From Eledone cirrhosa (taxonomy: Eukaryota): DNA of 64,000 nt. The position numbers and the translations under genes were made by a program. Positions 38,734 to 64,000 of the stretch are shown one piece after another. The stretch lies in contig OZ024747.1 in assembly GCA_964016885.1 (NCBI GenBank), positions 35,774,001-35,838,000 of the forward strand. The letters run 5' to 3'. Within the stretch, counting starts at the first letter, position 1. Every line of letters begins with the position of its first letter. The notes under the pieces are model-generated. The model worked only from the letters and a program-made list of their open reading frames with translations, made no database searches and was not told the origin of the DNA.

Positions 38734-40970
38734 ATTATTATTATTATTATTATTATTATTATTATTATTATTATTATTATTGTTACTATTATGTTTTTTT
38801 GTTTTTTTCTCGTGCAATGGCCATACTCGATAATGAGGGTACAACCATCATATATATTCCTTTATTATATTTCGAATACCTAACGATGTCACCGGCTTCA
38901 TACTGAACCCGGTCATTGAAATGATCATAGTATAATAAAACTTGTATGGAATTATACCAATATCCAATCTCCTGTTATATTATAATATATATATATATAT
39001 ATATATATATATATATATATGTGTGTGTGTGTGTTGTGTGTATGGATGGATGTAAATATGTATATATACATATATATATATATATATATATATATATATA
39101 TATATATATATAAGGGGATTGCGTGTCTGTTTGTGAGTAATTAATATATAAACATGTATTTATAGCGACGGCTATATGGCTCGAATTTGAAATAATATAT
39201 GAACTGTATAGCATGCCATTTCAAATGTACTTATGTAAGTGTATCGTTTGTATTAATGTGTGATTACATGACTAATTTATTAGGATGCTATAGTCACATT
39301 CACCAAGTCATGAATACTATTCCCATAATATGTGGCACAATTAGTTGTTTGAAGAAATAGTGCATAAACTATTTTGCTAGTCCTTATTTAGAACAAGGAA
39401 CTTTAATAAATACATTCTAACTAGCAATAATCTTTAAATATTTCACATTGACTAAAACATCGTTTATTTTATCTCATGTATTTAACAAACTGCTGGTGAT
39501 TATGAGGATAAATATTTAAAATCTATTAACACACACACACACACATACACACACACACACACAGACACACACACACACACAGACACACACACACACATAT
39601 ATATATATATATATATAGAGAGAGAGAGAGAGAGAGAGAGAGAGGGGGGGGGGGGGGAGGGTCGAAAAAGAGAGAGTGAGTCAGAGTCAGGCAGAGAGAA
39701 ATAGAGAGTGTTCGTTATATATTCATAACGTATGTATGTGAAAGTTCCTGTTCTGATTCACGAGTAAATGCATACAAATAAAGTATAAATATATAAACAT
39801 ACTTTTACAATTCTATTTAAAATTGTCATAGATTGAATGAATTTGAAAATAAGTTGATAAGCAGAATATTTATATCATCTCAATAAATCATGGCCATATG
39901 ATATAATTTATATTTCATTAATATACAATTATATAAAAAAATTATAATAAAAAAATTATATTTCATAGATTTGTTCAGAGTGATACGACACTCATTGTAA
40001 ATAGTAAATATTTGAGGATGCATCTAAACGACTGCAGATATATATATATACCTTTATAATATATGCTTTCATAATTTTTCAAGAATATGACAGCACTATA
40101 TTAGCGTGAAAATTATCTTTTATTCTACATCGATTTGTATATTCAATATTGAATTTCAAATGGACAAGTCTCAAAATGGCGAAGTACTTCCTCGCAAGCA
40201 TCATTGTTTATTACAGAATTAATAGCATTTGTTCCTGACAATTTAGAAATCAAAACGAAAACGAAGAATGTGTATGTATAGCAAATATATTTCTGTACAA
40301 TAATTCAGACATTAATACATGTATAACTACATACTTACTTAGACATATACATGCTGAAAGATAGATACACATATTTAGAAATATATGTGTATTTAAAATA
40401 TATTATGCGGCAACATGCAATTCTCTGAAACCAGTTAAATTTCCCCTATACAGTTCTAGTTGTTACCGATTACTCAATGATAAATGGTGCCTTACATGAA
40501 GATGTCATTCTCATTACTTACCCACACTATCTTATTTTCTCCATCTCACTATATATACGGTCATGGTGTGATAGATAGGGGTTGAATTCCTCGGAGTCAC
40601 TTCTGTTGATTCATTCCGGTATTCTCAACTAGTATTTATCTAGGTTGCACGGCAAGCTGCAGACATGTTTTCTACAAAAAATGCAATTTAGACCTACAAA
40701 ATCTACATATTTAAATGAACGTATCATTTAATAAATATGTATCAAGGGAAAGATGCGTGTGAAATTTTCAGAGATTTTGTATAGGATACTCTATAGATAT
40801 TTGTTTCTCTAAATGGCATTTAGAAAGACCAACATTCATTGAGATGTTATGTATATTCGGGACAAAGTTTATTATGTGAAATAATATATATATATATATA
40901 TATATATATATATATATAAAATAAAGTAATTAAGTCAAATATTTAAAATGTGGCTTCGCTTATAATGGAT

Positions 40971-41031
40971 GGACTGCTATATATATATTTCGGTGACAGC
41001 CAGCATTGTCTGTGACCTCTTCAGGCAGTCC
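40971..41031 (-). ncRNA. Type I hammerhead ribozyme with canonical core
   Basis: Minus strand: GGACTGC-CTGAAGA-ggtcacagacaatgctggctgtcacc-GAAA-TATATATA-TA-GCAGTCC. Perfect 7-bp stem I, pairable stem II, AUA cleavage triplet. Confidence 0.82.
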
Positions 41032-41177
41032 GAATTGTTGTGGTAGAGACAGGTACACATGTTGTTAAAGTGTTTTACTCTGTCAATACTCCGATATGTC
41101 CAGGTCCTGGTTCGGTTGTTATTTCTCTGAGGAACTTGAATCATATGAATTCTAACAAACGAATTGCGGCATCATAG

Positions 41178-60300: not shown

Positions 60301-60707
60301 TTATTATCAATAAATATATTTCATTATTTCTGAAGACGGCGTATATGTGTGTTTGGTATGTATATTTAATCTTGATAGATGTATAATTTTGTATAATTTT
60401 GTACATAGATCTGTTGAATATGCATGCCAATTCTAACACATATATATCCTAGAAACGATCGTTAAATAATGAACTTTTTTTGTTTAATATAAGGAACTGT
60501 TTCATTGTTTTATTCATTATTTGTTTAATATTTTATCTTGACTCTGTATACCGTTTATCTTTCACAGAAAGTGATTTTTCATTACATCTCTTCTTTCCAT
60601 GATATCCGGAATACATTGAGTTCATCATACGGATTGGACACTACCGTAAACTCTTGGTAGATTTATCTACACATATATATATATATATATATATATATAT
60701 ATATATA

Positions 60708-63700
60708 TGTAGATAAATCTACCAAGAGTTTACGGTAGTGTCCAATCCGTATGAAGAACTCAATGTATTCCGGATATCATGGAAAGAAGAGATGTAATGA
60801 AAATCCAATTTCGGTGAAAGATAAACGGTATACAGAGTCAAGATAAAATATTAAACAAATAATGAACAAACAATTCCTTATATTAAACAAAAAAAGTTCA
60901 CTATTTAACGATCGTTTCTAGGGTATATATGTGTTATAATTGGTATGCATATTTAACAGATCTATGTACAAAATTATACAAAATTATACAAATTATCAAG
61001 ATTAAATATACATACCTAACTCATATATACGCCGTCTTCAGAAATAATGAAGTATATTTATTGATAATAACAACAATTCAAAATATCAGTTCAAAATTGA
61101 CCAATGAAAACACAAAGGGTTAAAAAGCAGTTTGGTGTGTGTATATACATGTAAAAACCTTACACATATTTTACAATAATGTGTGTATAATTTGTATGTG
61201 CATACTAAAAAGATGGATGCAAATACAAAATTTCAAGGTTAATATCTCTGTAAGCTTAATGCGCTGATAAGATACGCAATGATACTTATGGAGTCAAGCA
61301 TATAAATATATTTTTTTCATACTCACACATATCAGTATAATCACACATACATGTGCGTATATGTATAAATATACACATAACCACGAACATACAAACACAC
61401 ACACTCCCCCACTCACATTTATATATGTGGATATAAAATCATAAGCAAATAGAAATTAAGTCACTCACATAAAAACACTGGTACACACATTTCAAGATCA
61501 AGATACAGAAATTAGGTGGGAGGGGGGGGGGAGGGGTCAGTATTAGATTGTCAGACCAGACAGCCTAATATAAATGTATCTATAAATTAAGAAAAATAAA
61601 AAAATAAAAACAATAAAATATAATACATATAATATAATGTACATACGCATACAGATATACATACACATACATACATGTACGCGCACATAGAGATATCTAC
61701 ACATACATACATACACACATACCTATACTGTCATACACACACATACATTTACACGAACATACACATACACATATAAAAAGATATAAATACACACACACAC
61801 ACGCGCAACACATACACACATACACATATATATATATATATATATATATATATATACATATATATACACACACACATAGACTCATATATATATACATACA
61901 TATACATACACATATACAAACATATATATCCCCACACTCATACCACCATAAAAACACATACAAACACCCAGATGTATATATATATATATATATATATATA
62001 TATATATCAACATACACACACGTACACATATATGTATATATACATACACATATACACACATACACATATATATATACACACACACATAAAATACAGACAT
62101 GCACATATATATATATATATATATATTTCATTACTCTTATATATACACATAGTATATATACATACACAACCTCACTTATACACATATACACATAAGTTAT
62201 ATTACAATAATAATAAAGAATAATATATATATATATATATATATATATATATATATACACACATATACACATATACATACATATATATACATACACATAC
62301 ATACATACACATACATACATACACCTAAATATATACATATATAAATACACACATACGAATAAAGACATATATTCACACATAGACACCTATATACACACAT
62401 ATATATATATATATATATATATATATCTATATACACACACATACACATACATACACATATATATATATATACACATACATACACACACACACAACCAGAC
62501 ACACATACACACTCACATATATATATATATATATATATATATGTGTATGTGAGTGTGCGCAAATACATATATATATACACACACACATACAAACACACAC
62601 AAACACATACATATGCATACGTGCACACACACACACATATATCACATAGATACGAAGATAAACATATAAATAGAGAGACATACAAATATATACAGAACCC
62701 ATATACACATACATACAAACACGCATATACATATATATACATATATACACATATATATATTCCTATATACAAGCATACACATACACACACGTATATACAT
62801 ATACATAGACATATACATACCACACATTCACATACACATACATATATAATACATATATATACATATATATACATACATATGTATGTACAATCATATATAC
62901 ACACTCAATCTTACATTCATATTTACATGCTCATATATGTATTTTTATATTTAGAAATAAATACCAAAACCTATATAGACACGCATCTACACATATATTC
63001 ATACATATACGCTTACAAAAACAGATGATAATAGTATGGGGGAAAGGGGGGGTTTGGAGAAGGGGATCAAAGTAAATATATGTTTCAAGAAACATATAAT
63101 ATTTTCCATATCTTAATTCAATGTATGTTCTTACATATTTTCAGTGCTAGGAAATACGAAATCTATGCATCACAAAATAAAAAAGTATACCATTAATCAT
63201 ATGTTAACTAAACCAAAGATAGTCAACATATTGATTTCCAAGGTGTAAATTAGTTAGGTTTATAATATTTGAAGCAGAATTATGAAGTCAAACAGTAGTA
63301 GATTATTAATTACATTATAACTAAATTAAAGTTAATAATGTTATGGTATCAATATTAGGAGATGAATTTAGTAATAGGGAAAAGAAAACCCAAATAAAAA
63401 TAAAATAAAGTATTACATCGGTAGTAGCATATAAATTATATGTTAACTAAATTAAAAATTATATATTTATTTCAATAGTATACGTTAATTAGTATATGTT
63501 AATTAGGTATACAATACATAAAGCAGATATTGTATTTCATCAATAGCATAATATAATTATATGCAAATAAAAATCAAAATTAATACGCATACATATACAT
63601 ATACATACACATACACATATATATACATATACATACACATATATATATATATATATACATATATATACACATACATACATATATAGTCACATAAATATAT

Positions 63701-64000
63701 ACAGAAACACATACAACACACACATATACATATACATATAGATATACATATCTTTTTCAAAAAATTGCACAGAATATATTAATTAGGTATATATCCAAAA
63801 CACCTCCCATTCTATGATTACATAACATTCTGCAATTCGTCTGTACAAGGATACTAATTTTAAGCAAATTAAAATTAAAGTTTTAGGTTGATTAAAACTA
63901 AAACCAAATAATAAATATATTTCCAAAATGTATATTAATTAGGTCTATAATACTAAAAATTCTTTCTCCGTCATAAAAATTCTTTCTCCTACAGTTTGAT
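60708..64000 (-). mobile_element. 3' region and pLTR of a related Penelope-like element (P3), tail-to-tail with P1; its ORF should lie beyond the window
   Basis: Reverse-complement homology to 57640..60672 with clear divergence; the two pLTR ends meet at (TA)n 60673..60707. Confidence 0.9.

Follow-up and report, generated by a model that had tools for sequence, protein, structure and literature searches.

What has brought so many hammerhead-like ribozyme motifs into the (TA)n microsatellites of a single stretch of DNA? The question is raised by 64 kb of Eledone cirrhosa DNA (the window; assembly GCA_964016885.1, contig OZ024747.1, positions 35,774,001 to 35,838,000), in whose right-hand part (38790-64000, the zone) a sequence-only reading had counted at least six modules with unrelated hammerheads and had attributed them to Penelope enzymes that place RNAs in (TA)n. 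Here, the zone is explained as probably a nest of Penelope-like element (PLE) insertions in (TA)n, comprising two elements of the Hydra clade, termed P1 and P3, with hammerhead ribozymes (HHRs) at their 3' ends, and four other families that are likely 5'-truncated or non-autonomous relatives.

The HHRs were located with a type I descriptor, tuned after the motifs had been seen, that tolerates a single mismatch in the core, bulges in helix I and a helix II of up to 130 nt; the stem limits of a stricter early descriptor caused families A, G and others to be missed. Twelve matches were obtained in the window, ten of which lie within the zone, against a mean of 0.08 and a maximum of two in 200 dinucleotide-preserving shuffles performed in 300-nt blocks. 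Six of the ten possess the exact core, a feature absent from all 200 shuffles, and the motif density is therefore not that of shuffled sequence. A palindromic helix III loop of at least 4 nt, which the scan did not demand, is present in seven of the ten matches and in none from the shuffles. With thresholds unchanged, the same descriptor returned 46 exact matches in 78 metagenome loci containing relatives of P3. The hammerhead motifs in the zone are real, and their self-cleavage is a prediction. The scan proposed with the sequence-only reading thus gave a clear excess with the custom descriptor, whereas Rfam reported no hammerhead family among 71 matches in 38700-51700, nor, in a wider scan, among the 150 matches listed of 181. 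Rfam matches to miRNA and snoRNA families were regarded as (TA)n artefacts, with scores below gathering. Scanning for the U3-A8 and U3-G8 core variants yielded no match, and no tRNA genes were found.

The ten matches fall into six families, namely A (38880, +), B (41024, −), D (49771, −, and 49910, +), E (50217, +), F (51068, +) and G, the hammerhead of the P3 pseudo-long terminal repeat (pLTR; 52130, −; 54458, +; 60330, +; 61041, −). The exact core CUGANGA/GAAA/UH with helices I-III is retained in B, the first copy of E and all four copies of G, the only three families with an intact copy in the zone; D and F have one core change each. The number six is therefore reached by the scan, although the original tally counted B and P1 separately and included a module, C, that has no valid core. 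Two matches lie outside the zone: one at 9254, inside the open reading frame (ORF) of a long interspersed element (LINE), was taken as chance, and the other is the family A copy at 16554.

P3 has the textbook layout of such elements, with an inverted 5' copy, a pLTR, an ORF, a 3' untranslated region (UTR), a second pLTR and a (TA)18 tract. The inverted 5' copy (51933-54360, −), with the G hammerhead at 52130, abuts (TA)n, lacks about 135 nt at the 3' end and is identical to the 3' copy at 438 of 440 positions. The 5' pLTR (54332-54800, +; HHR 54458) matches the 3' pLTR (60201-60671; HHR 60330, helix II insert 115 nt) at 434 of 439. Between them lie an intact ORF of 813 residues (54953-57394, +), with reverse transcriptase (RT), CxCX5C linker and C-terminal GIY-YIG-type domain, and a 3' UTR of 3.3 kb (57395-60672, +) with internal TA/TG arrays. 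Both ends of P3 abut (TA)n, at 51935 and 60673. The (TA)18 target (60673-60708) is shared, tail to tail, with a second, older family copy (60709-64000, −; HHR 61041) that runs off the window and is identical to the P3 3' end at 366 of 391 positions. The intact ORF and the pLTRs, which are 99% alike, imply that P3 is young. For the P3 protein, encoded by a single ORF with RT first, 119 homologues were found; the RT motifs and the pattern VY..YIG..R..H..E..N are kept in 80 aligned proteins. The key residues include RWR at 37-39 (a variant of RWK), DKT at 115-117, C673/C675/C681 (CxCX5C), C771/C774, E777, N790 and C799/H801, with no CCHH, and it is from such motifs that the GIY-YIG domain is assigned. 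By these motifs and a by-eye comparison with the supplementary alignment of PMC8557442, P3 is classed as an intact Hydra-clade PLE. Apart from one chance match, a sequence search of PDB returned only weak similarity to a retron RT (E 0.0026). A low-complexity insert of about 100 residues (56360-56690, about residues 480-580) is absent from most relatives.

The position of the HHRs relative to (TA)n was then considered. From the predicted cleavage site to the next (TA)6+ tract on the 3' side, the distance is 56 nt for A, 61 for B, 66 and 155 for D, 147 for the first copy of E, 205 for F, 71 and 210 for P3, 199 for the second P3 copy and 400 for the second copy of E, in which a short interspersed element (SINE) intervenes. 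Such a tract occurs within 250 nt 3' of seven of the eight independent insertions in the zone, compared with 26% of random positions in 38790-52000 (binomial p 5.5e-4, with TA density uneven), while on the 5' side it occurs in just three of eight. The internal pLTR hammerhead at 54458 is far from TA, as expected, and the left 38.8 kb contain a single (TA)6+ tract, which follows the family A copy at 17113 at a distance of 57 nt on its 3' side. The earlier statements that most modules end at (TA)n, and that GIY-YIG PLEs and HHR-bearing 3' ends are tied to this repeat, agree well with these results. The partition of the window by target repeat was recovered in part: (TA)6+ tracts number one to the left of 38790 and 49 to the right, and (TTA)5+ tracts eight and none, but P3-family copies themselves contain 28 of the 49, and an island of TA and HHRs lies at 16.4-17.6 kb. 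Beyond 52 kb, a large share of the TA sequence is carried within a single family of elements as cargo and is not target.

The process by which these insertions arose may be as follows. The GIY-YIG endonuclease would nick (TA)n, and RT would prime on the nick and begin copying the RNA 55-210 nt beyond the HHR. Early stops of synthesis would be usual, giving 3' fragments of 130-500 nt. If both strands of the target were extended, with RT starting at two different sites, the result would be fold-back pairs in which a single arm has a tail. One-sided tails are observed in C (about 40 nt), D (90 nt) and P3 (about 135 nt), the fold-backs of which were probably all made by this two-strand process; for an anole PLE in vitro, both target strands are extended and two internal RT starts define the tail (PMC11167929). 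Each insertion would split the tract and leave new (TA)n targets on both sides, so that insertions nest. HHRs with self-complementary helix III loops are predicted to cleave as dimers, and two pLTR cuts in P3 would release a unit RNA of 5,871 nt, the length between its two HHR sites.

Several points weigh against this explanation. The anole PLE inserted in vitro with no need for HHR cleavage (PMC11167929). Pfam returned no family for P3 and GIY-YIG in three of ten aligned members at E 0.004 or worse. Within the window, none of the modules A, C, D, E and F is joined to an ORF remnant, and neither arm of C has a canonical, U3-A8 or U3-G8 core. The hammerhead fold of A lies 12-17 kcal/mol above the best short-window fold, the distal part of helix I being excluded. 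Target-site duplications are unreadable within the microsatellite, and the read-depth evidence described below covers only B, P1, C and a SINE-like repeat.

P1 is the second, broken, Hydra-clade element. Its RT and GIY-YIG ORF (42417-44952, +) is interrupted by stops and frameshifts and shares 36-50% with P3 in four RT pieces and 24% in the C-terminal piece by tblastn. The 3' UTR (44929-46212, +) contains an internal TA/TG tract and is broken off at 46212 before any HHR. Three tandem repeats of about 99 bp (44929-45227) directly follow the ORF, 1.5 of which recur in the inverted arm. That arm, an inverted copy of the 3' UTR (41171-42333, −; 85% over 1198 columns), continues to the B hammerhead (40971-41031, −; exact core, palindromic helix III loop) and then to (TA)17 (40884-40917), whereas the sense arm stops at 46212. 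Of 16 listed contig pieces, three span 41014-41240 and differ from the window at 30-31 positions, and hence represent other loci. Since other loci also join B to the P1 3' UTR, B is P1's own HHR, about 1,370 nt from its stop, and had been counted twice; no further HHR was found in P1. The motif reported at 40971 therefore keeps its intact core but loses its independence, and of the two elements said to carry HHRs in their pLTRs, P3 does so exactly in four of four family copies while the sole HHR of P1 is B. At many P1 positions in 41178-46001, every aligned contig differs from the window, although the flank 46943-48173 is 99.8% alike; sample S1 may lack this particular P1 copy, a reading limited by the alignment filters.

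Read data were available from four runs (two contig sets of one sample and two restriction-site-associated DNA (RAD) runs) aligned over 40920-49265, the depth being taken as an order of magnitude and not as copy number. The single-copy level is given by a 1.26-kb contig over 46943-48173 with 2-3 differences and a depth of 8-9. In run X1, the summed depth reaches 93,747 for the bin of B against 831-4,904 for the bins of the P1 ORF, about 45 times deeper, and 29,625-129,222 for C, whose 3' parts (92,574 and 129,222) exceed the 5' part (about 30,000). P1 is likewise deeper in its 3' than its 5' part, and the ranking in the RAD runs X4 and X5 agrees with X1. The greatest depth, about 2.9 million, belongs to a short repeat with no HHR at 46462-46940 (+), further copies of which lie at 18182-18300 and 51590-51751, and which resembles octopus SINEs. 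With regard to the modules being possibly single-copy, B and C are high-copy in the reads, and A and E each occur at a second place in the window.

These depths bear on the strongest alternative, that some short modules (B-type, A, E and F) are dedicated SINE-like non-autonomous families whose 5' end is fixed and which are mobilized by the Hydra enzyme. RAD molecules stop at 41036, 5 nt upstream of helix I of B, in 1408 of 1948 cases in X4 and 1188 of 1568 in X5; since about three-quarters of reads end there, most B-like sequences have another upstream part. Together with the depth of B over the P1 ORF, the mini-pLTR-like direct terminal repeats of F and the non-coding interiors of A and C, this makes dedicated families a serious possibility, if short of probable. 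The sequence beyond 41036 could, however, belong to other autonomous families, the copies of E differ in their start point, and depth is not copy number. Truncated or non-autonomous PLE relatives remain the preferred reading of these modules.

The remaining families are mostly damaged, which qualified several of the individual motifs first reported. Family A in the zone is a 3' fragment (38853-38985, +) that ends at (TA)n and is identical to the 17.1-kb copy at 105 of 131 positions; the HHR noted near 38870 is real, with intact homologues outside the zone, but its core here is mutated (G5). The homologues form a fold-back insertion (16442-17225; cores at 16554, −, and 17113, +; arms identical at 199 of 220 positions) whose right arm ends at (AT)41, 17219-17300, and whose left arm ends with no (TA)n tract. 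The motif at 49902 belongs to the D palindrome (49665-50108), which has (TA)n at both ends and hammerheads in both arms, each with one core change. Family E is intact at 50213 (copy 1, 50136-50397, +; HHR 50217), with (TA)n on each side; copy 2 (51351-51530, +) is split by the SINE-like repeat, and at 51401 a 7-nt deletion has removed the 3' strand of helix I. In F (50848-51258, +), direct repeats of about 110 nt flank the motif reported at 51062, which is hammerhead-like (51068) with a single core mismatch, G8 to A. Independent loci in the window number two each for A, E and G and one each for D and F. Short palindromes with no HHR are also present at 17301-17586, 17869-17968, 46462-46578 and 50457-50588, two of which directly adjoin (TA)n.

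The stems had been described as unrelated, a statement not borne out here. Primary sequence is mostly dissimilar among the families, and helix III with its loop is self-complementary in A, B, F and G but not in D and E. A C-C mismatch at helix II position 4, noticed post hoc, is nevertheless common to A, B, D and G, while relatives showed it in none of their 27 distinct inserts. Near the cleavage site, A agrees with G at 21 of 27 nt (E 0.03), and B and E have an exact 14-mer in common. Common descent within this genome is likelier than independence. A tblastn search of the window with the 119 P3-homologue proteins located coding remnants at P1 and P3 only. Comparison of the modules with the 78 metagenome loci gave a single 28-nt AT-rich match, taken as chance.

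Module C (48203-49269) is a fold-back between two (TA)n tracts, with arms at 48203-48650 and 48783-49232. The motif reported at 48424 and 48973 has a 4-bp helix with GNRA loop, helix II, GAAA and UH, but for want of a valid core in either arm it is not retained as a hammerhead. A 211-nt flank (47971-48186 and 49320-49530) is duplicated in inverted orientation around C, its arms alike at 205 of 211 positions against 418 of 447 for C. A depth of 15-20, compared with 8-9 for single copy, corresponds to 2-3 copies, and the idea of a further repeat family was rejected on this basis. The arrangement may have arisen either by fold-back synthesis into the flank, by 3' transduction by C, or by entry of C into an older TA-centred palindrome.

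Two other explanations of the modules fare worse. One regards them as metazoan non-LTR retrozymes that spread via circular RNAs. Type I HHRs do occur here in short non-coding hosts, and retrozymes have been argued to derive from PLE pLTRs (bioRxiv 10.64898/2026.07.22.740005). Retrozymes are, however, defined by tandem HHR monomers (PMC7229834 and the same preprint), whereas the window contains no 150-450-bp monomers arranged head to tail and each bearing an HHR, the pairs are inverted, and the motifs are of the minimal PLE type; the retrozyme origin is thus very unlikely, and the term retrozyme-like in the sequence-only reading is not supported. It is hardly credible that the motifs are chance folds in palindromic AT-rich debris, with TA adjacency reflecting TA density, since the post hoc descriptor, the silence of Rfam, the weak single-motif folds of B-F (z −0.1 to −1.7) and the failure of C are outweighed by the shuffles, the unrequested palindromic loops, the exact matches in Hydra relatives and a TA bias that is 3' and not 5', so that for B, E and G this explanation is largely refuted.

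Within the PLE explanation, hammerhead G has unusual dimensions. Its helix II insert measures 106-116 nt, about four times the usual length, compared with 11-25 nt in the 46 exact matches of relatives; sizes in the Hydra table of the PMC8557442 supplement are similar to the latter. Among 27 loose matches in relatives, one insert of 105 nt (locus L029), with no fold check, was left out of the tally of long helices II. The G insert is well folded (z −7.05) and holds a variable 10-nt repeat. Four copies gave no two-sided, four one-sided and four broken pairs of 55, under a fold that pairs the core region differently, and as two-sided covariation is absent from them the length of helix II may be neutral growth. 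The dimer duplex is calculated at −10 kcal/mol and the active fold at 3.1 kcal/mol above the best fold. Published core searches use spacers of up to 17 nt and mention cases of 35-50 nt, and would miss G; if a helix II of 110 nt is genuine, published descriptors would undercount PLE hammerheads. No report of a PLE HHR with a helix II above 100 nt was found in a literature search made mostly without subscription papers.

The P3 stop codon is also separated from the HHR by 2,936 nt, against 72-525 nt in 17 related loci, these being the 17 of 44 metagenome loci with at least 150 nt past the ORF that carry a sense HHR there. In the UTRs of both P1 and P3, a (TA/TG)n tract lies 430-515 nt after the ORF, at the place expected of a normal 3' end, and the HHR is not reached until 1.4 and 2.9 kb out. 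The long distance and the tracts suggest read-through and adoption of a downstream 3' end. In general form, (TA)n clusters would be exchange sites at which Hydra elements read through the target and take over the HHR and RT start of the next module, a proposal that we regard as doubtful. No HHR remnant was found before the first TA/TG tract in either UTR, and hence 3'-end adoption remains a guess. If correct, P3 would spread kilobases of its own target, modules such as B would form very high-copy SINE-like families, and both the many divergent HHR families per genome and the seeding by an element of its own targets would be explained.

In the left 38.7 kb of the window, LINEs that end in (TTA)n are stacked in tandem. 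Two types, one with APE and RT and the other with RT and zinc finger, presumably Tx1-like and Dong/R4-like, alternate at (TTA)n over 1-38787. A remnant at 18720-19312 is assumed to be transposase-like. Copies at 6614-10411 and 34976-38787 are 95% alike, and those at 1926-4424 and 10358-12856 are 97% alike; a (TTC)50 tract (15416-15564) follows a LINE 3' fragment. Dong-R4, L1-Tx1, Penelope and SINE families have been recently active in Octopus vulgaris (PMC13282606).

The zone therefore serves as a local example of published PLE biology, and much of its apparent simple repeat is composed of PLE ends and cargo, which is useful for repeat annotation. P3 is a candidate with which to examine biochemically, for the first time, whether a Hydra enzyme targets (TA)n and whether a minimal HHR with a very long helix II cleaves. 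Our literature search, again mostly without subscription papers, found no report of HHR clusters in cephalopod (TA)n. The idea of a second microsatellite ecosystem holds in that PLE and HHR ends lie at (TA)n, but such behaviour has already been published for Hydra and Naiad PLEs. In both groups, 5' truncation occurs and inverted copies have a tail on one side (PMC8557442). Naiad PLEs share the (TA)n bias, the fold-back insertions and their occurrence in octopus, and as they have no canonical HHR module C could be of their kind, but their endonuclease is N-terminal and no Naiad ORF was seen in the window. Non-LTR retrozymes are similar as PLE-linked non-coding repeats with type I HHRs, and differ in their tandem monomers and in a canonical loop-loop motif, neither of which is shown in the window.

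Minimal HHRs provide a closer comparison. They occur mostly singly or as opposite-strand pairs 100-700 bp apart, are attributed to truncated PLEs, and cleave weakly and only as multimers (PMC4209133). The window agrees in its long helix II, its short palindromic helix III predicted to need dimers, its many divergent families per genome and its single and opposite-strand motifs, and differs in the C-C mismatch of four families and in the far longer helix II of G. Hydra PLEs, including Hydra-1_Obim of octopus, insert in (TA)n and have canonical HHRs (PMC8557442). Two metagenome Hydra loci show the same layout: in one (L047:2605-2956), (TA)n separates a sense HHR from an inverted pair of HHRs unrelated to it, and in the other (L068:128-2482), HHR copies in inverted orientation are bounded by (TA)n on either side. 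P3 is like this clade in its C-terminal GIY-YIG-type domain, RW(K/R), DKT, CxCX5C and CxxC/CxH motifs and absence of CCHH. It also shares an HHR close to the 3' end, insertion into (TA)n, an inverted 5' copy and a tail on one side. By eye P3 represents a different family from Hydra-1_Obim, and its unit of about 5.9 kb exceeds the size of generally below 3 kb that is typical of the clade, although not defining. The sequence-only interpretation is thus right in kind and the pattern already described, the variant features being the helix II of P3 and its microsatellite-rich 3' UTR; both the helix II insert and the distance from stop to HHR exceed those of its Hydra relatives.

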